A stretch of 64,000 bases of DNA from a virus, in the IMG/VR virus record IMGVR_UViG_3300027747_000967, positions 1 to 64,000 of that record; one strand, 5' to 3'. The position numbers and the translations under genes are program-made. The stretch's first letter is position 1. Each line of letters begins with the position of its first letter. The notes under the pieces were generated by a model, which was given only the letters and a program-made list of their open reading frames with translations, did no database searches and was not told where the DNA came from. This document shows, piece by piece, positions 26,717 to 64,000 of this stretch.

Positions 26717-26735
26717 AATATTTTCCTTTTCTAAA

Positions 26736-31226: not shown

Positions 31227-32006
31227 TTAAGCTGCTACTCGTAATTGTGATAATTTTTCAACCGATAAGCTAGAAACATATGGAGATTTTACGAATCCAG
31301 TCGTATCTTTCTTTGCTTTACCTTTTGCATAAAGACCTACAACCACACCTTTTGGATCCAGAAAGCGTAAATCGCTATCATCGCCATTGAATACAGGACG
31401 GTTATAATAAGTTTCAGGCATTTCTTCAGTTTTCTTTAAATCAAACACTACGGCAATATTGTAACCTTGCTGTTTTGCCATTAAAACATCTAAATCATTA
31501 CCATCAGCAGCAGAGAAAGTTAAATGATAATTCGGAATGCCAGATACTTTACGACCTAACACTTTTGTATAATCATAGAATTGAACAAAAGGGAATGCTT
31601 CAAAGATATTAACATAATGAATATTGCCTACTTGCACGCCATACTTTTCCCATGATAAGTCCGAAGTACCGTTTAAACGAAAAACTGGAATTAAACCTAA
31701 TCTCTCGCTTTGCTTTAATGCCAATAAAATATCTTTTACTAACAATGACATAAACGCATTTCTGTCATCAAAAAACATCTTGGTTTTACGAATACGAGCT
31801 TGCTGTATCATATTAGTAAATTCACCTTTTTTGAACATACCGCCACGACCTGCAAGATTCAAACAAGCATTAGAACAACCGACCGTCCGTTTTGGACAAA
31901 CCTCACGACCTGACAAATCAGCCGGTGCTAAGTGTAGAATATAAGTATTATAACCTTGTTTAATACCTTTTAACACTTTTGGATTACCCGTTGATAATAA
32001 TTTCAT
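31227..32006 (-). CDS. Gene-product-88-like Cys-cluster protein
   Basis: CP....GC...CL..AGRG, FRLNGTSDL.WE, FYDYTK, NYHLTFS, GDDSDLRFLD. Confidence 0.7.
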   Translation of the reverse strand: MKLLSTGNPKVLKGIKQGYNTYILHLAPADLSGREVCPKRTVGCSNACLNLAGRGGMFKKGEFTNMIQQARIRKTKMFFDDRNAFMSLLVKDILLALKQSERLGLIPVFRLNGTSDLSWEKYGVQVGNIHYVNIFEAFPFVQFYDYTKVLGRKVSGIPNYHLTFSAADGNDLDVLMAKQQGYNIAVVFDLKKTEEMPETYYNRPVFNGDDSDLRFLDPKGVVVGLYAKGKAKKDTTGFVKSPYVSSLSVEKLSQLRVAA

Positions 32007-32314: not shown

Positions 32315-33402
32315 AGCTTAACCACTACAACCTCTATATCCAATAAATTGAACAATTCATTTTATATTCATTTTGAAGTAAACGTAATTCGTCCAAATTG
32401 ACCTTACGCTTACCAAATGATTCAAATAACGTATGAGCTAAAGAACATCTAGGAGTAAAAATATCATTACCATCTGAATCCATTTTACCGTTTATCTGAA
32501 TTACTTTAAACATATAAAATCCTTTTTTTCCAATAATATCTCACTTATGCTATTATCTCTATATGATACAGTATATGGATTATCTAAAGATATTGTATAA
32601 ACAACCTTTTTACCAGAACCGCCATATAGTCTAGATGATAGAATCGTACCTGTAATTCCAGATGCATAACCTGACTTTACTTGAATTTTAGTATTATTTG
32701 CTAATATTCTCATATTAAAACCTTTCTTATTCAATCGTTACTTTTTGCAATTCGTCTTTTAATTCATCAATAGACATATTGTTTAAACCTTTAAAACCAT
32801 ACATGATAAAATCGTATAGAGTATTATCATTATAACTTGTATCATTTTGGCAATTATCTATAATTAAATTGCATATTTTGGTAATCATTTTATCTTGATT
32901 CATTTAAAACCTTTCAATATTTACATTAAATTTACATCAAATATATTCTATATAACTAAAAGTAATATAGACGCTTATAGTGTCGCTAGTATGACATACA
33001 CTGCGAAACTTAGTTTCTACTTACAATTCTCCTGAGCGCATCCAGAAACATCCTGTGCGGTTCCAGAGATACTTTAAACTGCCATATCTTGAAGATTTTG
33101 AATTTTACTCTCAAGATACTTAATGCGTTCATGTCGTAATTGTGCCACTTCGCTATCACTACGAATATATACATCAAACGAATGTGCATCAGCTTTTGGC
33201 GTAGCATTACTTGTAGTATTCTTGCGAGTTCCTCTATACATTACATAAAATCTCTGGGAGCCATCTACAATACTTCTAAATGTATCAATCTCTTTTATTG
33301 GAATATTCTTATATGTCGAGCGTAAACCGGAGCTGGCTCTAGTAGCATATCTACCATACAATGTTGCAAGTGTATCACTAATTTTATAATCTGTTCTATA
33401 AT

Positions 33403-33591
33403 TCATACTATCTCTTTCTTTGTTAAATTGTGAATTTTTCTTATTACTTCGCAAATATCATCTGAAACGTCATCTTCTATATCAGCATAATAATTTAATG
33501 CATCGTATATAACGTCTAATTGTTTATCAGTCAATTCTACTGTTTTTTCAAGTTTTAAATTCTCGACTTTTACTAGTTTATATGTAATCAT
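33403..33591 (-). CDS. Small protein lacking Gly, Pro and Trp
   Basis: ORF track translation; lies in the GG/CC-free zone. Confidence 0.55.
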   Translation of the reverse strand: MITYKLVKVENLKLEKTVELTDKQLDVIYDALNYYADIEDDVSDDICEVIRKIHNLTKKEIV

Positions 33592-33603
33592 ACTATCTCT
33601 TTC

Positions 33604-33921
33604 TTAAAGTAATTCGTTTAACTGTGAATATAAGAATTCTACATCATCGTGAATATCGCAACTTGTAAAATCATCATCATCATGATTTGACGTATTATTC
33701 TCATTATCATAATATATTTCAAAGACTGTATGGTCGAGTTTAATAGGCTCGTTTTGAAAAAAATTACACGGACTATAAAAATGTTCGATTACATAACATA
33801 CTTTACGATTGAATTTATCAAAAAACTCATATTCATTACATTCTACTGATTCAAATGATTGTTTAATTGTAACATCATAATCATTCGCAATACTTGTTAT
33901 TTCATTTAAAAATTGATTCAT
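33604..33921 (-). CDS. Small highly acidic protein, no Gly
   Basis: D/E-rich, e.g. NHDDDDFTSCDIHDDVEF. Confidence 0.6.
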   Translation of the reverse strand: MNQFLNEITSIANDYDVTIKQSFESVECNEYEFFDKFNRKVCYVIEHFYSPCNFFQNEPIKLDHTVFEIYYDNENNTSNHDDDDFTSCDIHDDVEFLYSQLNELL

Positions 33922-33938
33922 ATTTTCTTTCTATATTA

Positions 33939-34160
33939 TTATTGTGACATAAATTCATCAAACTCTTGTTTAATTGTGTTTTCAATCAATTGAATTTCAT
34001 GTAACTCTTGTTTTCTTTCATCTGATTCTAAATAATCTTCAATACGTTCAACGCAATGTTGATGAACGTTGATATATTCAGTTCTGTAGTTTTCACATGA
34101 ATTTAATAAAAATTCATAAAATTCTTTTGCAGTTTTTTCTTTACTCATTTTTTCTTTCAT
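33939..34160 (-). CDS. Small acidic protein lacking Gly, Pro and Trp
   Basis: First gene after the 34180 promoter. Confidence 0.6.
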   Translation of the reverse strand: MKEKMSKEKTAKEFYEFLLNSCENYRTEYINVHQHCVERIEDYLESDERKQELHEIQLIENTIKQEFDEFMSQ

Positions 34161-34179
34161 TTGTTTAACTAATACATCT

Positions 34180-34240
34180 ATTATACAGTAATCTCAAAAA
34201 AAGTCAAGAAATTACTCTATATTAGTGTCTTAAAAACAAC
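34180..34240 (-). promoter_or_regulatory. Early promoter with degenerate box
   Basis: TTGACT-16-TATAAT; GTGTC-N6-ACAAC. Confidence 0.65.
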
Positions 34241-34830
34241 ACTAGCGGGCGTCTTTTACTTCGGCATCTGATAATAACGAGAAGCAAAATCAGCTCGTTC
34301 TCGCTCATAATCGCTTCTTCTATCTGGATTATTAACTTTTAATTCAGCCCACCATACTAATTTTTCTTGCGTCATCTCTGGATGCTTTTGTTTCAAATCA
34401 GCAACATAATCATTTTGCTGTTCTTGCGTCATATCGCACCATTTTGTTTCATTGATTATACTCATATACTCTCTTTCTTAATTACTTCAATAATTCAAGT
34501 ATTTCTTCGCTTGTCTCTTTTACCCAAATGTGAGCAGTATTAGATAATGATATGCGAGTCGCAATTATTTCATAATAATTATCTTTTGCAAGCATTGATT
34601 TTGATTCATCTACTTTAAAGCCAAATTTGCGAGTTCTTCCAAACATTGTAATTGCATCTTTATTTACAAAAATGTCGTAAACAGTCGTTATAATATCGCC
34701 ATTTCCAGCTTTAGTAGAATAATCATCTACATGAGTTAATTTTATTGTATTCATATTTCACTTTCTTTATTAATTAATCTTACTCTAATATACTCATAGA
34801 ATACATTAGATAAAACAATTAAAAAACTAC

Positions 34831-35235
34831 TTAAACAGTAGCAGCTTTCTTAGCAGCAAACTTAGCAGCTATTGCGTTCGCTTCTTGCGCTTCTACTTGT
34901 AACATTGTCACTTTAGAAGCTTTGCGATTCGCTTTAATCGCTTTTGAGCCGACTGGCTTCGCTTTCTTATCTTGTAACTTCTGTAAACGCAACTGAGCTT
35001 TCGCAATTCTATCTTGTAACTTCAATTCAGCATCAGCAGCTTTTACAGCACGTGCTTGAGCTCTTGTTTCACGGTCTTGCTCACGCATCTCTTTTTGAAT
35101 TCTCTTATAATCTCGATTAAGAGCTACTTCATTTTTAATAGAAGCTTTAAGAGCTGTTAATGTTTCTCTTTTTTGGGCAAGAGTTAAGCCTTCAATGGAA
35201 CTACAAGCAAATGTAAACATAGTGTTTTCTTTCAT
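34831..35235 (-). CDS. Lys/Ala-rich basic coiled-coil protein, first gene of the early island
   Basis: Composition (AAKFAAKKAA); downstream of the 35356 promoter. Confidence 0.65.
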   Translation of the reverse strand: MKENTMFTFACSSIEGLTLAQKRETLTALKASIKNEVALNRDYKRIQKEMREQDRETRAQARAVKAADAELKLQDRIAKAQLRLQKLQDKKAKPVGSKAIKANRKASKVTMLQVEAQEANAIAAKFAAKKAATV

Positions 35236-35355
35236 ATAAAATAAATGTTAATAATTAATAATACTGCTGATAATATCATAGAGTATAAACAAATAATCAA
35301 TAAATTGTCTATATACTGTAATTCGTTTTTCTCTTTAATCTTCATCATGTAAACC

Positions 35356-35383
35356 ATTATACAGTAATTTAAGAATTTGTCAA
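35356..35383 (-). promoter_or_regulatory. First promoter of the early island
   Basis: TTGACA-16-TATAAT-GGTT. Confidence 0.7.
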
Positions 35384-35399
35384 TCGTTATTTTTTGCGT

Positions 35400-35760
35400 T
35401 TCTATCTATTTGATTTTATTGAAGAAAATACTTGAGTAAATTAGTATAGTATAGAAATTATAACGAATTTTTCGTGTTTTTCTGCGTTTTTGTGTGTTTT
35501 TGTGTAAAAAGACGCAGCTCCAAGAGTCAATGAGTGTAAGAGTGAGAGAGTGATGAGCTCCAGAGCCGTGTGTAGACTGACTGAGAATGATCGAAGAGTG
35601 ACTGTAGAGCCGTGTGTGTGTTGAGTGTGAGTGATGAATAATAAAAAAAGTTCATTCCAGGTCGGACTGATTATTTCCATTATTTTTTTTCAGGAGGAAT
35701 TCGTGTTCCTCAAAATTTTTCCCGCAAGAACTCTGTGTTCCTAGAATTTTTTTTGGAAGG
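35400..35760. other. Non-coding strand-asymmetric repeat region (candidate origin, packaging or terminus element)
   Basis: GT-T5 repeats, GAGTG/GTGTG-rich tract, agagccgtgtgt x2, gtgttcct..aattttt x2. Confidence 0.45.
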
Positions 35761-36433
35761 CTACTCGCTTCCTACGACATTTTCTATATTTGTGTTTATC
35801 CTTAGGCCCTCCACGAGTGGCAATCCACACAGGTAGACTTACACAAGAGCAAAAAATCACTAAAGCCCATAATTGGTCAAACGTAATCATACATTATCCT
35901 TTCAATCAAAGTAATCTTCCTCTATGATTCCATTATCCAGACATTCCCTGATGAATTCGTTTGCACATCCATCACTTAGTATAGCATCAGAAATCATATT
36001 TTCAATGATAACACGTTTTTCTGTATCAATATTGTGTTCCGACCATGGAAAATTATCTACAAGTCGTTCCACACAAACAAATACCCAATTTTCCTGATTT
36101 TGTTGTTCCATCCAATTCATTTACAGTCCTCTCCATCCTAAAAGAAAGCAAGTTTTCACCCATTCATTGAAATTCTTAGAGAATCGTGTTTTGTGTAGTA
36201 AATCCAAGTAAATATATGGAAACCAAAGAACAAACAATGGTCTCCTTACATAAGGATTCTTTATATGTGATATTTTAGCAGTAATATTCATTCTTCATAA
36301 CCTAATTCGTATTTTTTCACTTTTTTCATCAATGCCGACCATTCCGTAGCACGTTCTTTGAGTTCACCATTGAGCCAAAACTCAAAATACTTACCATTGT
36401 GTTCATATTTTATGTGTATTTTTTCTTTGGACT

Positions 36434-36853
36434 TCATTTCTCTTGTGCCTTTCTTAGTATTGCTCTAGCAAACCATTTCAACTGCTCCATTGATGAATGA
36501 CCATCAACATTAGCCCTTGCTATGCTTTCTATTTCCTCATTTGTTAGTTCCCGTTCAATCTCTTGCCCAATATCAGATAACCGTTGTAATGCTAATTCTT
36601 TTTTCAACGCTTCTATTTCAGCTTGTTGCAGTTCTATCTTTTGATACAGTAAGTCAATCAGTCTTTTATCACCGTTGGCCGTGCGTTCATCTATATTTGT
36701 GTTCGTCTTACTACGCAACCCATCTATTTCTTGGGCTTGTTGGCGTAGCATGGTTTGTGCTAGTTCAATATTGTTGGCATAATCATAATATTCTTCACTG
36801 GTTAAAATTGATATTGAACCTTCTAATTCATCTGCTAGTTCATTTGCAGTCAT
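36434..36853 (-). CDS. Modular small phage protein
   Basis: MTANELADEL..TMLRQQ..EIEALK..ELT.EEI..FARAILRKAQEK. Confidence 0.65.
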   Translation of the reverse strand: MTANELADELEGSISILTSEEYYDYANNIELAQTMLRQQAQEIDGLRSKTNTNIDERTANGDKRLIDLLYQKIELQQAEIEALKKELALQRLSDIGQEIERELTNEEIESIARANVDGHSSMEQLKWFARAILRKAQEK

Positions 36854-58522: not shown

Positions 58523-59533
58523 TTATCTGCATTTCCACTTGCGTAATGCGAGTGCTTTTCTTGTTGGTTCACCATTTGGTTTCTTCATTGCACCAGGCAT
58601 ACCACCCATCCTAGCACAAAATGACTTTCTACGCTTAGCTGCTTTACTTCCTGGTTTTACTTTACCTGTAACTGCTTTCTTTAATGTAGAACCTGGATTT
58701 TCTCTACGATATGATGCAATACCTTTTGCATTTAGTCCGCCTGTAGGATTCTTACCTTCTTTTCTACGCCAAGCGGCAGTCTCGTATAATTCTTCGTCTG
58801 AAACATCTTCAAGGTTTTCCCAAAGAATTTCAGGATCAATATTACTTTCTTCTGCAATACCGTTAACAACTTCTTCTAAAATGTCAAACAATTCTTCAAC
58901 ATCATATTCTTCAACTTCTTCATCAATATCTTCAGCCGTCCATTTATAATAACTGTGTTTATTTAAATGAGCAAGGGCTTCTTTATGTTTGCCAGCAGCT
59001 ACTAGATTTCCCACAGCTCTAGCATGGCTCACAGGAACATTATCACCTCCATGACCCCGTGGAAATATATTAGCTGGATGAAGTGCAGAGCGTTCACCAT
59101 GCACTTCATGATATAGTTTACCATTGTTTTTACCGACATTAAAGTGATAATGGTTTTTTGATTGGTCCTGCGCATGAAAAGATGCCAGTCTTGTTTCAAC
59201 CAATTTTTCAACTTCTTCTTTCATTTGCACAACAGAATGTAATTTATCTTGTTTACCATCTTTACGTTCTAATCTATTACCTTGAGCGTGTTTCTTTGCA
59301 GCATCTAAATTTCTATGAGTGAAATCCATATAATGCGTTACTTCATTGGTATCAGGATCGTGATAAGTTGCACGAAATTTATATGGATAGTGTTTTGCTT
59401 CTTCTAATTCAACTTCTTCTTCTTTTACACAAGAACCTTTTGAAAATGCTTTTTTACCAGGAACAGGTTTGTATCCTGACCAGCATCTACCTTTTTCTTC
59501 TAAGTATTCTTTAAATTCTTTAAATGTTCTCAT
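58523..59533 (-). CDS. Putative internal head polyprotein with conserved basic C-terminal domain (DUF6321-like)
   Basis: MRTFKEFKEYLEE; CWSGYK..CVK; AAWRRKEGKNPTGGLN..RRKSFCARM..LRKWKC. Confidence 0.65.
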   Translation of the reverse strand: MRTFKEFKEYLEEKGRCWSGYKPVPGKKAFSKGSCVKEEEVELEEAKHYPYKFRATYHDPDTNEVTHYMDFTHRNLDAAKKHAQGNRLERKDGKQDKLHSVVQMKEEVEKLVETRLASFHAQDQSKNHYHFNVGKNNGKLYHEVHGERSALHPANIFPRGHGGDNVPVSHARAVGNLVAAGKHKEALAHLNKHSYYKWTAEDIDEEVEEYDVEELFDILEEVVNGIAEESNIDPEILWENLEDVSDEELYETAAWRRKEGKNPTGGLNAKGIASYRRENPGSTLKKAVTGKVKPGSKAAKRRKSFCARMGGMPGAMKKPNGEPTRKALALRKWKCR

Positions 59534-61374
59534 TTTTTTCCTTTAATCCAATCGTCAGGTATCTTACCATGTTTCTTTTTAAAATCGTTATGTAAATCTT
59601 TGCCGGTAATTCCATGTTTAACAGCAATTTTTTTCATTAAACTATCAATTGAATCATAACTATGACTATCTAACTTCTGTAAACCTTTTTCTAATTCTAC
59701 TACACAGTCCTCATTAAATTTCTTCTTACCTTTTTTCTTAATGATGACACCAACATTTCTATTTAAATCTTTATAGGTATCCATACCTTCTTTGTTGCTA
59801 GCACCACCTAAAACACCACCTAAACCAGATTCAACATCATTTTGAAAACCATTATATTCTTTAAATGTTCTCAACTTCTTCTTTTTAGGTACATCATAAT
59901 CACTACTTAAAGGATTTACAGAACCACCACCTGGCATTGCGTTACTAGCAGGACTTGCATTACTATATTCTACTGTCTCTCCCATGCCACCTAATCCAGC
60001 ACCACCAGTTAATCCCGAACCATTAGTTCTCGTATTCCATTCTCCACCTAAACCAGTTGGTCTTACAGATTTAGGTTCTTTACCTGAAGTATCGCCACCT
60101 TTTAATCTTTTCTTTTTATCATTATCATAATTAAAATTGGGTTCTTTAGGTAAAGGCAATGCTCTTAAAATAGGTTTACTTTCTGTCAATACACCCCTAT
60201 TCCTTTTCAACCATCCTTCTGCTACATCGGTAAATCTGTTGGAATCTAAAAAGAGGTTTGTATTTTCATATACTGTATGAATATCCTCTTCCTTGGTATC
60301 TAGGTTTCCTGTGTTGTCAAAGCCTATAAATGTCTCAAAAATTTCATAAAAACTATTAATATTTTTTTGCGATTTATTCCATTTGTGATATCGAGCAGAT
60401 TCATTCATCATTTTAGACAATGATTCATTTCTTTGTTTACTAATTTCATTGGTTGTTCCAACAAAAATCATCATGGTTTCGTAACCAAGTTCTTCAAGTT
60501 CTTCTTTAATATAAGAAACTTTTTCATAATCGTCCGCAGGTCCATTAATGATTAGTGGGCTTCTTCTGCGAATTGACTCTCTACGATAATCGTTGGTTTT
60601 TTCGGATAGTTTTTGTTTATCACCAAGAAAATCAATAGCTTGCGTAAAATTAATTTCAGTCATTTTACTCTCAGCAATGGCTTCACGGATAATAATGTCT
60701 TTACCTGAACCTGGACCACCAGTTAGAAAGATTGCCTTGAATGAACCACGATATATTTGTTCATTTAATCCCATGCCTTTACGGACATCATGCATCAATT
60801 CTTTTGTGTGTTCGTCAGAAACATGAGATGGAACACCTTCACGAAAGCCAGCGAAATTATTATTTTTTGCGTGTTCTCTCATTTTTGTAGCAGACATACC
60901 TTCTGCACCTTCAGCGTCAGGGTCACGATGACCAGCAGACACAACACTTATCTTTTTGAACTTATAAAAACCGTGTTTACCTTTTACGTCATTGTATTTG
61001 TCCAATGTTGTTTGGAATTCTTTAACACGGTCAGAACCAGCAACTACGATTAGATGGTCATGTCCTTTATTATAAAGTCTGGTAGCATGATGAAAAATAG
61101 AAGGTTCTTCGGAACTAGAAGATTCAAAATTTGTACCAGGAGAATATCTTCTTAAATGTTTAATTTTTTGTTTGGCAGACAAAGGATTCTTTTTTGTATC
61201 TTGTGAATGTGATACAATAATATGATGTGGTGCATGATTTTTTTCTGCAACTTCTCTTATTTTATGAATTAACTTTAAATGACCAGTAGTAGGAGGATTC
61301 ATACGACCAAACGCCATCACCACAGGATTATGTGTTTTTTCTATTTCTTCATATAATTCTAAAAATGATTTCAT
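59530..61374 (-). CDS. Cytidylyltransferase/NMNAT-like nucleotidyltransferase fused to a P-loop kinase-like domain
   Basis: FGRMNPPTTGH, KNPL, VAGSDR, MSATKMR; then KAIFLTGGPGSGK. Confidence 0.8.
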   Translation of the reverse strand: MKSFLELYEEIEKTHNPVVMAFGRMNPPTTGHLKLIHKIREVAEKNHAPHHIIVSHSQDTKKNPLSAKQKIKHLRRYSPGTNFESSSSEEPSIFHHATRLYNKGHDHLIVVAGSDRVKEFQTTLDKYNDVKGKHGFYKFKKISVVSAGHRDPDAEGAEGMSATKMREHAKNNNFAGFREGVPSHVSDEHTKELMHDVRKGMGLNEQIYRGSFKAIFLTGGPGSGKDIIIREAIAESKMTEINFTQAIDFLGDKQKLSEKTNDYRRESIRRRSPLIINGPADDYEKVSYIKEELEELGYETMMIFVGTTNEISKQRNESLSKMMNESARYHKWNKSQKNINSFYEIFETFIGFDNTGNLDTKEEDIHTVYENTNLFLDSNRFTDVAEGWLKRNRGVLTESKPILRALPLPKEPNFNYDNDKKKRLKGGDTSGKEPKSVRPTGLGGEWNTRTNGSGLTGGAGLGGMGETVEYSNASPASNAMPGGGSVNPLSSDYDVPKKKKLRTFKEYNGFQNDVESGLGGVLGGASNKEGMDTYKDLNRNVGVIIKKKGKKKFNEDCVVELEKGLQKLDSHSYDSIDSLMKKIAVKHGITGKDLHNDFKKKHGKIPDDWIKGKK

Positions 61375-62378
61375 TCGTCTATCGTTTTCTTAAAATTGAT
61401 ACCTTTATGGCCTAATGTTTTGGCCATTGCTTGTAAGTGTTCATCTTCATCTAAATCAACATGACTTTTTTCCAAATGTTTTACTTTAAACATCACCATT
61501 CTTTTCATAGGATCGCCAGTTTTTTGATAAACTCTGAATTGTCCTTTACCTTTTGCTTCAGGTAATCCGTGGCCAGTTGCATCTTTTTTTCCTACTTTAT
61601 AAGTACCGTGTTTACCAACTTGCAAAACATGGACATGATGGTCTTTTAAATATCCGTTTGCTGGGTCCAAATTTTCATGTTCAAATAAAACATCTTTAGC
61701 TCTTTTGACATTTTCATTGGGCATATGATGTTTATTCATATGTTCTAAGATACCTTTTGCTTCAATATGTTTTGCATAAGTAGGCCTATTCGCCTTATTC
61801 TTTTCGGGCATATGCCAACCGCCTTTGTTTTTATCATAGGCAATCGTCAATTGACCAAATGCGGCTGTTTTACCAATTTTTGTTTCACCTTGTAACACTT
61901 TTTTATCTCCAACTTCTCTTTCACTATGAACTCTACCTTTATGTTTCTGTCCGGTTTTTTTATTAATTAAATTAAAATCATTACCAGCAGAAAAACCAGC
62001 GGCTTCTCCGTGCATCAAACCATGTTTTTTTAATCTTTCAACAAATTGTTTTTCATAATCAAAACCTTTATTAGCTTTTTGTTCACCAGGTTTAACAATT
62101 TTATTTGCAGGTATTAAAGTTTTCTTTTTTGTAACATTATCGGTAGCATGAACAAATAATTTACCGTCATATCTTTCTGCTTTATGTAATATTAAATCAG
62201 CGCCTGCAGGAACATCTTTATGACCTACGCCTAGTTTATGAGTAGGCGTTTTACTATTCAAATGAGGTGTAACATATTGTTTTTCGTGTCTTTCTGTGTC
62301 AAATCCAGTTGCAGCAATATATCCTCTCGATTCAAGAATTAAATCTTCATAGAGAATATATTCTTTAAAATTAAACAT
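61371..62378 (-). CDS. Putative PD-(D/E)xK nuclease-like virion protein
   Basis: GFDYE, AG..GND, GETK..AAFGQ; MFNFKEY..LILE N-terminus. Confidence 0.45.
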   Translation of the reverse strand: MFNFKEYILYEDLILESRGYIAATGFDTERHEKQYVTPHLNSKTPTHKLGVGHKDVPAGADLILHKAERYDGKLFVHATDNVTKKKTLIPANKIVKPGEQKANKGFDYEKQFVERLKKHGLMHGEAAGFSAGNDFNLINKKTGQKHKGRVHSEREVGDKKVLQGETKIGKTAAFGQLTIAYDKNKGGWHMPEKNKANRPTYAKHIEAKGILEHMNKHHMPNENVKRAKDVLFEHENLDPANGYLKDHHVHVLQVGKHGTYKVGKKDATGHGLPEAKGKGQFRVYQKTGDPMKRMVMFKVKHLEKSHVDLDEDEHLQAMAKTLGHKGINFKKTIDE

Positions 62379-62381
62379 TTA

Positions 62382-63557
62382 CTATCTCACCTTTAATAAA
62401 TTTGCACGAGCAAATTCGGCTCGGTTGACTAATTTTGTAGGCTCGCCTGCATGATTGACTACAAAACCTTCTGGTTTACTTCTTTTACCTGCAATATGGT
62501 GGTCTAATCCACCTTCATGTTGTTCTAAATTTTTAACTAAAATATTTTTAGCTTGTTGTAAGTGGTGATGCATATTTAATAAATTTTCATAATGGTCTTT
62601 ATTTTTTTCTATATGGTCAGTATGCATTTTTGCTTCTTGTTTTTTTCTTGATTGAGCCGCAGGCGTTTTTAATTTAGCAATAGCTTTATTATATTTTTCT
62701 TGTATATGGTTTGATAAACCTTCAGCGGAAGGTTTTTCACCTGTTCTTACTGTTTGATTTATATAGGTTCCTAGTTGACCAGATTCACCACGATGTGGTT
62801 CGGTTGCCTTATACATTTCACCTTTATGTTCATCATGTATTGCTTTTGCGGCATTCATATGATTATTAAATTCTTCTTGGTCTTTTTCTGAGTAGTGTAT
62901 CTGACTAGTATCGTGTTCTGCGGATTTAGTCCAAACATCCGGATGTTGTTTGAAGTTATGTAAATCTGGATGAGGATCAGCAGACATACTATCAATTGTT
63001 TTTCCGTGATATTGTTGGTGAATAACAACACCCATTTTTGCTTTACGAACTTTATCTGCTTCTTCGCCTTTTGCGGTATAACGAATTGTGTTAGGAGTAA
63101 AAGAGACACCCCCATCCGATTCTTCTTTATCACCTTCTGAAAACATCATATCGCCTTGATATACACCAGACTTGGGTGACATCTTTTTAAGATGTTTAAG
63201 TGCTGAATGTAATTTTTCTACAAGGCCAGGAGCGTGTCCGTGATTTTTAACAATATCTGCGTGAGTATAGTTGATTTTAGGATTTTTATTGAAAGCAGAT
63301 TTCGAAGCAACAAAAAATTTACCTGTTTCTGGATGATGACCAAATACAATAGATGGAGAACCATCATACTTCATAGTTAAAGCGGTACTTTTACTTCCAG
63401 ATTTAATGTGTTCGTGTGTTTGACTTAAAGCGTTATATGTATGTGTAAAACCTTTTGAGCCATATAATAAAGGTCTATCTTCAGCATGGTCTATATGCTT
63501 AAGTTTTTGACCTTCTTCTTCGGCCTCTTCTTTTATGAATACTAAAAATGGTTTCAT
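62382..63557 (-). CDS. DUF6267-like protein with ATP-dependent ligase/nucleotidyltransferase motifs
   Basis: KYDG (motif I), ASKS, QGD, EGFVV (motif IV), KLVNR (motif V). Confidence 0.7.
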   Translation of the reverse strand: MKPFLVFIKEEAEEEGQKLKHIDHAEDRPLLYGSKGFTHTYNALSQTHEHIKSGSKSTALTMKYDGSPSIVFGHHPETGKFFVASKSAFNKNPKINYTHADIVKNHGHAPGLVEKLHSALKHLKKMSPKSGVYQGDMMFSEGDKEESDGGVSFTPNTIRYTAKGEEADKVRKAKMGVVIHQQYHGKTIDSMSADPHPDLHNFKQHPDVWTKSAEHDTSQIHYSEKDQEEFNNHMNAAKAIHDEHKGEMYKATEPHRGESGQLGTYINQTVRTGEKPSAEGLSNHIQEKYNKAIAKLKTPAAQSRKKQEAKMHTDHIEKNKDHYENLLNMHHHLQQAKNILVKNLEQHEGGLDHHIAGKRSKPEGFVVNHAGEPTKLVNRAEFARANLLKVR

Positions 63558-63563
63558 TAATTA

Positions 63564-63607
63564 CCTCATGGATTGCAACACACTTTGGTTGCCATGATGT
63601 ATTTATA
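63564..63607 (-). promoter_or_regulatory. T4-type late promoter and leader hairpin for the internal-protein operon
   Basis: TATAAATA 63600-63607; UCAUGG/CCAUGA and GCAAC/GUUGC stems overlapping the GAGG RBS. Confidence 0.7.
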
Positions 63608-63624
63608 CAACTTTTGATTTCATA

Positions 63625-63651
63625 TAACCGAACTTTACAAAAATTCGGTTA
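63625..63651. terminator. Inverted repeat downstream of the epimerase
   Basis: taaccgaa..ttcggtta. Confidence 0.4.
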
Positions 63652-63689
63652 AATATATAGAGAGAAGTTTGAGCTTAAATTATTGGGTT

Positions 63690-64000
63690 TTATACCAGTA
63701 ATTCAATCATCTTTGACATAGGATATTGAGGTTCATATCCTAATTTTTTGATTTTTTTGATGTCTAGTATCATATCTTTTGCTTGAACAATACTATGAAA
63801 TCTAGGTGTTGGTATACTATTAAAAGATGAAGAAGAATTTGTCATTTCCTTAACCTTCAACATTACGTCCATCAAACGAATACCTTCACCGTTCGCTAGG
63901 TTGTAGATTTCATTCTTTTTTCCAGAATTTAGAATAAGGTTGATACCAGACACGACATCATCTACATAAATGTAATCTCTATACACTTCACCACCCTCAT
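63690..64000 (-). CDS. C-terminal part of an NAD-dependent epimerase/dehydratase (runs off window)
   Basis: RDYIYVDDV, EIYNLANG, KIKKLGYEP. Confidence 0.8.
   Translation of the reverse strand, partial: EGGEVYRDYIYVDDVVSGINLILNSGKKNEIYNLANGEGIRLMDVMLKVKEMTNSSSSFNSIPTPRFHSIVQAKDMILDIKKIKKLGYEPQYPMSKMIELLV

Follow-up and report, generated by a model that had tools for sequence, protein, structure and literature searches.

A block of small, putatively early genes nearly free of GG and CC steps in an uncultured T4-like freshwater phage

Between positions 33356 and 35650 of the viral record IMGVR_UViG_3300027747_000967, a block of small genes is almost devoid of GG and CC dinucleotides. The record is an IMG/VR contig of 119,998 bp (class linear; CheckV completeness 71%; GC content 33%), of which the first 64 kb form the window analysed here; it represents an uncultured T4-like freshwater myophage. 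The GG/CC-depleted island is a real feature that is unique within the record and has been shaped by selection with a lineage-specific onset, and the rule behind it acts at the level of the DNA with dinucleotide specificity rather than being a by-product of composition. The depletion had been noticed in a reading of the letters of the window alone, to which we refer as the original prediction.

Over the entire island, GG occurs 13 times and CC 17 times, where the base composition of the zone itself leads one to expect 39.5 and 61.9 occurrences, respectively; the sum of 30 is the figure that had been estimated by eye for these 2.3 kb. The original prediction was likewise exact for the two blank stretches at 33356-33730 (375 nt; G 36, C 60; ~13 GG/CC expected) and 33772-34246 (475 nt; G 40, C 71; ~14 expected), each of which contains zero GG and zero CC, and for the three GG that lie between them within 41 nt. 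Both borders of the zone are sharp, with a sudden change in GG/CC density at 33354 and 35657. In the coding part both strands are hit, with 13 GG (27.9 expected) and 13 CC (60.8 expected) on the plus strand. Across 2,263 windows of 2,295 nt that do not overlap the zone, the ratio of observed to expected GG/CC (O/E) has a mean of 1.06, a standard deviation of 0.10 and a minimum of 0.79, compared with 0.30 in the zone, and the lowest raw count in any other window of this length is 83 versus ~30; hence, the expectation that no similar trough would arise at random elsewhere was borne out. When windows of 500 nt are used (genome median O/E 1.04), the sole contiguous run below 0.5 is 33251-35500, and one isolated window (26751) reaches 0.47. 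Over the whole genome, the O/E values are 1.09 for GG and 1.04 for CC. CG and GC remain common in the zone, as had been stated: GC is found 76 times (O/E 1.54; genome-wide 1.09) and CG 59 times (O/E 1.19; genome-wide 0.74). The depletion goes beyond what a low GC content would produce, and is an avoidance at the sequence level that has reshaped codons, proteins, ribosome-binding sites (RBSs) and one promoter.

Evidence for a rule at the DNA level comes from a codon control in which the protein sequence is kept fixed and the codons are redrawn from the genome's own usage. In this codon-shuffled comparison, which the original prediction had proposed, the six consecutive genes between 33403 and 35235 hold 23 GG/CC, while 51.0 are expected; each of the six has a z value between -1.6 and -2.4, and their combined z of -4.91 is the lowest among 177 six-gene runs. 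The minimum number of GG/CC attainable without altering the protein was computed by dynamic programming, and it turned out that 18 of the 23 cannot be removed without a protein change. Avoidable GG/CC thus amount to 5 versus 33.0 expected in the six genes (ratio 0.15), and to 2266 versus 2372.0 in the rest of the genome (0.96). Four zone genes sit exactly at their theoretical minimum; no other gene of the genome ranks as low.

The choice of codons in the zone depends on the neighbouring letter. Where the next codon does not begin with G, the G-ending form is chosen for Lys, Glu and Gln in 28 of 94 cases (30%) in the zone and in 21% in the rest of the genome; in front of a codon that begins with G, it is found in 0 of 41 cases in the zone, compared with 28 of 163 in the neighbouring small early genes and 203 of 2173 in the remaining genome. 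C-ending two-fold codons are used in 25 of 149 safe contexts but in only 2 of 16 risky ones in the zone, while the risky contexts elsewhere contain them in 422 of 1481 cases. Because of this context-dependent codon choice, the background codon preference of the zone can be equated with that of the genome, and only the junctions that create GG or CC are banned.

The purge extends beyond synonymous positions. The open reading frames (ORFs) at 33403 and 33939 indeed encode no Gly, Pro or Trp, and the zone contains four of the five proteins with the lowest content of these three amino acids among 182 ORFs. None of the seven zone genes possesses GG at positions -18 to -4 relative to its start, whereas GG occurs there in 115 of the 182 ORFs of the genome, the seven included; the RBSs of the zone read AAGAAAGAGA or GAAAGTGA, while those of the neighbours read AAGGA. 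The loss of GG from the zone RBSs is therefore confirmed, but the string that had been quoted as the usual RBS near 26725 has no match in the window; the actual sequence at that place is AGAAAAGGAAAAT. The promoter-like site at 34180 is altered as described, with AG following it; in this place, 6 of the 18 promoter-like sites of the genome have GG. Among the natural substitutions listed within the zone (16 of the 40 listed), none creates a GG or CC and two such steps are removed, which is weak evidence since only 4 of the 16 are changes to G or C.

The contention that the zone is purged of GG and CC throughout holds for its coding part; the non-coding DNA at 35236-35650 is free of GG only (0 versus 15.4 expected), and its CC content is normal (5 versus 4.5). 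The GG of the promoter-like site P1 (CC at 35354 on the plus strand) is the sole GG/CC in 35199-35519. Upstream of P1 lies a GT/GA-type G-rich element (Table 1) that may be a separate feature: it shows no significant fold on either strand, its core is unmatched in the relatives, and it has no Rfam match. Its minus strand (35441-35640) is C-rich and G-poor with internal repeats at 35562-35591 and 35606-35635 and resembles a Rho-loading (rut) site. Just beyond the island, the segment 35694-35775 carries a GTGTTCCT-like / CGCTTCCT motif in three spaced copies that each precede a run of T, and one of these copies forms a terminator-like hairpin on the plus strand. A terminator-like site sought on the minus (coding) strand in 32500-36500 was not found.

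The features of the island and its edges are compiled in Table 1. In the direction of transcription, the order is P1, the genes for the 134-aa, 90-aa and 69-aa proteins, P2, and the genes for the 73-aa, 105-aa, 62-aa and 109-aa proteins. P1 and P2 have the appearance of near-consensus sigma-70-type early promoters, and the P2 region shares 76-84% identity with promoter regions of the related loci L002, L003 and L085-L087. Between 10 and 46 kb and again at 82-84 kb, the record has promoter-like sites of a similar kind, and the zone therefore lies inside a long putative early region and not at its head; the "leading" position attributed to it was not borne out. No zone protein has a significant match in PHROGs or Pfam (the best, LPD25 with an E value of 0.026, failed the cut-off), and look-ups in a protein atlas gave viral clusters only, without names. 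Homologues of the 62-aa protein occur in L002, L018, L003, L085 and L086; for the 90-aa protein, only one 97%-identical cluster was found. An AlphaFold2 model of the strongly acidic 105-aa protein (predicted local distance difference test score 91) consists of five strands preceded and followed by a helix; a fold search with it in PDB and BFVD remained without a match at E <= 0.001.

Table 1. Coordinates of the GG/CC-depleted island and of the genes and sequence elements associated with it
Feature	Coordinates	Strand	Remarks
GG/CC-depleted island	33356..35650	.	30 observed versus ~101 expected; the symmetric ban spans 33356-35440
Promoter-like site P1	35356..35383	-	TTGACA, 16-nt spacer, TATAAT, then GG; 12/12 consensus positions
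Promoter-like site P2	34180..34207	-	TTGACT, 16-nt spacer, TATAAT, then AG; 11/12 consensus positions
134-aa Ala/Lys/Gln-rich helical protein	34831..35235	-	Family conserved in the phage group; homologues in 13/80 loci
90-aa accessory ORF	34482..34754	-	Minimum possible GG/CC, 6/6 unavoidable
69-aa accessory ORF	34256..34465	-	Minimum possible GG/CC, 7/7 unavoidable; no homologue in 80 loci
73-aa ORF without Gly, Pro, Trp	33939..34160	-	GG/CC 0 versus 3.6 expected from own protein
105-aa acidic protein, small conserved family	33604..33921	-	13 homologues; GG/CC 3, 2 unavoidable
62-aa ORF without Gly, Pro, Trp	33403..33591	-	GG/CC 0 versus 3.2 expected
109-aa ORF, left edge of the island	33074..33403	-	First 16 codons inside the island; GG/CC 12 versus 15.0 expected
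RBS/start junction repeats, family D1 (n=3)	33400..33422, 33585-33607, 34459-34481	-	Near-identical
Non-coding G-rich, GG-free element upstream of P1	35441..35640	.	G 59/200 nt; GG 0 versus 17.4; CC 4 versus 2.2

Natural populations of the phage vary in the cassettes that they carry. Parts of the stretch are contained in sequencing runs from nine studies, which are labelled freshwater metagenome, aquatic metagenome or plain metagenome, and no RNA dataset is listed among these runs. When contigs of four runs from four studies were aligned to the stretch, cassette deletions were found in three of them (X2, X3, X8), with the joints 33403>34752 (X2), 33407>34770 and 33419>33604 (X8), and 33443>34256 and 34461>34751 (X3). 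These deletions remove whole cassettes, the 90-aa ORF being among those missing in some natural variants; their joints are at or near the D1 repeats, and those at the left edge of the island fall within 33403-33443. The letters that bridge one of the joints in X8 include CC, which corresponds to an RBS of the ordinary GG type. Pieces of the zone are matched letter for letter by contigs from X2 and X6. The layout is that of a hyperplastic array of small, putatively early-gene cassettes that are apparently driven by sigma-70-type promoters.

Is the ban shared by related phages? A total of 575 related uncultured contigs were confirmed, and the best 80 of these, taken as IMG/VR loci with the conserved neighbouring gene at 31227-32006 in their centre, were analysed. 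Four ORFs of the zone have no homologue in these 80 loci. The test for the same zone in relatives, which the original prediction had proposed, had a mixed outcome: most of the 80 loci have no trough at this place, but one of them, L003, possesses a distant cassette that is free of GG and CC. Homologues of zone genes are also carried by the metagenome loci L084-L087, in three of which (L085-L087) the gene order is the same. The homologous genes in L084-L087 have mononucleotide-corrected O/E values of ~0.5-0.8, a partial depletion that stems from the composition of their proteins only. Avoidable GG/CC in homologues number 6 versus 4.7 and 8 versus 4.7 expected for the 105-aa family, 11 versus 3.9 and 8 versus 3.7 for the 62-aa family, and 7-15 versus ~10 for seven homologues of the 134-aa protein, whose gene in the island has 4 versus 12.8. 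In the 134-aa protein itself, a Gly common to three of the seven homologues and a Pro common to all seven are both replaced. Since avoidable GG/CC are normal in the homologues, the gene families predate the ban, which is therefore lineage-specific and was imposed in place.

Within 1.97 Mb of sequence from the phage group, 32 stretches of at least 150 nt are free of GG and CC. The top four by expected count are three pieces of the zone (476, 377 and 243 nt) and a 578-nt stretch of L003 (13.3 expected), made up of a promoter, the gene for a 114-aa protein and a portion of the gene that follows. The 114-aa protein of L003 is distantly homologous to the 105-aa protein of the island (39% over 82 aa), and a second, divergent lineage thus obeys the rule on a cassette of like kind; intermediate lineages do not show it. 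Contigs of close relatives encode proteins with 83-97% identity (P0001-P0005). Searches for relatives with the 134-aa protein alone and, in viral contigs, with the alignment A1 of the 105-aa family gave none, and the search with alignment A2 returned L003's own contig only. A run of low GG/CC in the relative G005 (105001-106500) was considered as a comparable cassette and rejected because it is a gp46-like core gene in a genome with low O/E. The median GG/CC O/E of the G005 genome is 0.84, compared with 0.94-1.10 in other relatives, and its strongest dip lies in the gp46-like gene.

Nearly all genes of the record, from 7 kb to 120 kb, are carried by the minus strand. Matches over the curated Pfam cut-offs identify a T4-type core comprising the gp23 capsid, gp20 portal, gp17-type terminase, gp18 sheath, UvsW and gp46-like proteins; further T4-like core genes identified by such matches are those for UvsX, a gp41-type helicase and a piece of a gp43-type B-family polymerase (PolB). 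Ribonucleotide reductase and CobS/CobT-like proteins are encoded as well; a search with the CobT-like protein gave only cyanophage and pelagiphage relatives at identities of up to 36% (cyanophages ~35%). The segment 32500-36500 has no match among cultured phages by blastn and none in Rfam, and a tRNA scan of the window found none. A large sugar-nucleotide/glycosyltransferase cluster occupies 59530-64000 of the window and 1-12336 of L081 (record ~59-72 kb); it encodes a cytidylyltransferase/P-loop fusion, epimerases/dehydratases, a DegT aminotransferase, methyltransferases, a GT2 glycosyltransferase and an HtrL/YibB-like protein, and it may act on the virion, the host surface or DNA. The Druantia DruA domain is matched by two phage proteins (L081 13495-14610, E 1.3e-08; L082 9060-10325, E 4.7e-19); their genes, at 73.5-74.6 kb and 89.1-90.3 kb of the record, adjoin those for the gp41-type helicase and the gp46-like protein. 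A 477-aa protein (L083 15451-16884; record 115.5-116.9 kb) has an N-terminal Mtd_N (major tropism determinant) domain and is possibly a receptor-binding protein of the retroelement-diversified kind.

Several palindromes are strongly avoided in this genome: GATC (43 versus 363 expected), CGCG (1 versus 56), TCGA (40 versus 159; O/E 0.25), ACATGT (0 versus 17.6) and TACGTA (0 versus 7.9). The relatives G002-G005 avoid other sets, namely AAGCTT (0 versus 45), TGATCA (0 versus 33), CTGCAG, TGCGCA, TCATGA and GCATGC. Such lineage-varying avoidance suggests unmodified DNA and hosts that are rich in type II restriction systems.

We consider it possible, and hold the view tentatively, that the island reflects selection against a defence system that reads a short GG/CC word in DNA and acts on first-wave genes. 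In the lineage of this phage, selection would have rewritten the DNA in place to a near-minimum of GpG/CpC steps on either strand, a process that would touch synonymous sites, codon junctions, RBSs, one promoter and also the amino-acid composition of the encoded proteins. The products of the island genes would probably be first-wave takeover or counter-defence proteins, and the defence would otherwise hit genes whose products are needed before all others. Candidates for the reader might be an effector or adaptation complex of a CRISPR system with a CC/NGG-type protospacer-adjacent motif (PAM), or a frequent-cutting or nicking nuclease; these are known kinds of reader with a two-letter specificity on duplex DNA. 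The data establish the ban, its dinucleotide and lineage specificity, the early-type promoters and the mobility of the cassettes, whereas a defence as the reader and counter-defence proteins as the island's products are inferences. The marked avoidance of palindromes, a sign that DNA-cutting defences exert pressure on bare DNA, also speaks for this explanation, and Murciavirus offers a precedent (PMC12455610). As thousands of GG/CC persist elsewhere in the genome, selection must be local, and would concern the integrity or expression of the cassettes in the first minutes of infection, or their temporal isolation.

Several observations weigh against this explanation. No protein of the zone matches any anti-defence family or known fold, and in the four whole relatives (150-163 kb) no comparable island exists anywhere. 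The zone also retains 5 of the genome's 40 TCGA sites, and general stealth towards restriction was rejected as an interpretation, the effect being modest: the zone has 249 distinct REBASE sites versus 293.5 +/- 20.0 in other windows. Furthermore, because a cut elsewhere in a genome with otherwise normal GG/CC content should kill the phage, a local ban needs an extra assumption. This could be local criticality of the cassettes or cooperative infection of the kind seen with anti-CRISPR phages, in which the counter-defence locus reportedly matters even when the genome that carries it is lost.

Among the other explanations, the import of the entire block from a phage whose early cassettes already lacked GG/CC, which would make the pattern a legacy and not the outcome of current selection, is compatible with the variable presence of cassettes among natural contigs, the four ORFs without homologues in the 80 loci, the TCGA sites retained in the zone despite their genome-wide avoidance, and the GG/CC-free homologous cassette of L003. 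Such a foreign legacy conflicts with a codon usage that is native in GG/CC-safe contexts and with the recoded, syntenic and conserved 134-aa gene, which is depleted here but not in its seven homologues; moreover, the ban crosses cassette joints and promoters, and import would merely shift the question to the donor. We regard this scenario as unlikely. Rather unlikely, too, is one of the two mechanisms offered by the original prediction, in which the phage itself marks G or C in GG/CC contexts and keeps this block free of targets so that it stays unmodified. Room for it is left by the 71% completeness of the record and by the sugar-nucleotide/glycosyltransferase cluster, but a search for modification genes in the 120-kb record found no C5, N4/N6 or D12 methylase, no TGT/DpdA, no QueC and no thymidylate-synthase-like gene. 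PF01702 (TGT/DpdA) has no match in the record or in any of five near-complete relatives, although a very divergent DpdA could escape the model; PF06508 (QueC) likewise has none in the record and none in the five, which also lack a C5 methylase, and an N4/N6 methylase occurs in two of them. The strong, lineage-specific palindrome avoidance implies bare DNA under restriction pressure. Hardly credible is the notion that no rule exists at the DNA level and that the island is a by-product of low GC content combined with helical, acidic proteins devoid of Gly, Pro and Trp: protein composition alone does bring homologous genes of the relatives to a mononucleotide-corrected O/E of ~0.5, but it leaves unexplained that synonymous and junction sites are at their theoretical minimum and that RBSs, a promoter and non-coding DNA are affected too.

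Context-specific damage or mutation would draw on GG as a hot spot, either of one-electron oxidation or of a motif-specific deaminase or nickase, with genes expressed before repair being kept free of the word or eroded by it. A depletion that is strand-symmetric, operates at the dinucleotide level and is confined to early genes would agree with this, as would the CT found here in three of the five changed sites at which the homologues share CC. These five are, however, the only informative sites; GC and CG are enriched, which fits a rearrangement under selection rather than a loss of G and C; TG/CA and TC/GA show no matching gain; and relatives from a like habitat do not have the ban. Damage appears improbable to us. 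A quite improbable explanation is a reader at the RNA level, whereby early mRNAs would escape a RegB-like endonuclease specific for GGAG or a CsrA-like binder of GGA, or would stay unstructured. RegB of phage T4 cleaves GGAG within early Shine-Dalgarno sequences, and all seven RBSs of the zone lack GG; yet a purely RNA-level reader of GG is insufficient because CC is banned from the message as well. The idea of unstructured mRNAs was rejected, the mean folding z being -0.69 in the zone and -0.33 to -0.67 in three neighbouring early regions, and a search for the RegB family gave no match, though the control genomes gave none either. The second mechanism of the original prediction, that this part of the DNA is the first to enter, starting from a fixed end of the genome, in the manner of T5 first-step transfer or of a T7-like leading region, is very improbable. 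It would account for a motif that is locally absent and present elsewhere, and the available part of the Murciavirus report provides a precedent (PMC12455610), but a fixed entry end is not supported by the terminase, portal and capsid of the T4 type, by early-type promoters that flank the zone on both sides and place it inside the early region, or by relatives that do not have the ban at the same locus, the four whole ones included. Relatives assemble as circles with overlaps of 25-127 nt and differing breakpoints; the "terminal repeats" of three of them are assembly overlaps (127, 25 and 127 nt), and the ends of these contigs map differently on the common gene order, which fits circular maps.

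The first-step-transfer DNA of T5 lacks EcoRI sites. For Murciavirus, as far as the part of the report available to us goes, the location of a motif in the leading region alone decides restriction (PMC12455610). The island is like both systems in that a motif is missing from a short early region with variable, putatively anti-defence genes and is kept elsewhere; it differs in that the word is a bare dinucleotide step instead of a site of 6-7 nt, that the packaging core is of the T4 type without a sign of a fixed end, and that the purge reaches amino acids and RBSs. The depletion of CRISPR PAMs in phage genomes is, in the portion of the study accessible to us, mild and genome-wide (Kupczok and Bollback 2014, PMC4246573). 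Selection against a motif of 2-3 nt and codon-controlled resampling are common to that study and ours, and the local avoidance reported here likewise goes beyond codon bias; however, it is near-total and confined to 2% of a genome whose overall O/E is 1.04-1.09. The hyperplastic regions of T4-type phages with promoter-early/stem-loop (PeSL) cassettes (Arbiol et al. 2010, PMC2839356) offer, within the available extract of that article, a structural parallel: small, poorly conserved ORFs between conserved blocks, promoters of the sigma-70 type that look strong, and indel joints within repeated regulatory sequence. Unlike in the PeSL regions so described, no stem-loop terminator is paired with a promoter on the coding strand here, and the joints lie at RBS/start repeats; dinucleotide avoidance is not mentioned in that extract (PMC2839356). 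The genome-wide avoidance of palindromes by unmodified phages is similar in being strong in this phage group with a site set that differs per lineage, but the island bans GG/CC and does not follow the genome's avoidance of TCGA. The papers that our literature searches gave, on the depletion of PAMs, the shuffling of PeSL cassettes and restriction motifs in leading regions, contain no account of a local GG/CC-free early-gene island of a phage.

That Gly, Pro and Trp as well as the GG of Shine-Dalgarno sequences have been stripped from 2% of the genome means that a single GG or CC is costly there, despite the thousands that exist elsewhere. This pattern points to something that reads a two-letter DNA word locally and early, and we know of no defence, modification or expression mechanism that would fully account for such a reader in a T4-like phage. 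"Dinucleotide-blank" immediate-early cassettes might, as a possibility that we advance with reserve, be a recurrent strategy that reveals a DpdA-independent reader of GpG/CpC on duplex DNA, with lineages switching the ban on and off, presumably following the repertoire of their hosts or of the defences they face. If the reader is a defence, such islands would mark first-wave counter-defence genes and offer a cheap, sequence-only way to find them, and the identity of the reader would be directly testable via the islands.

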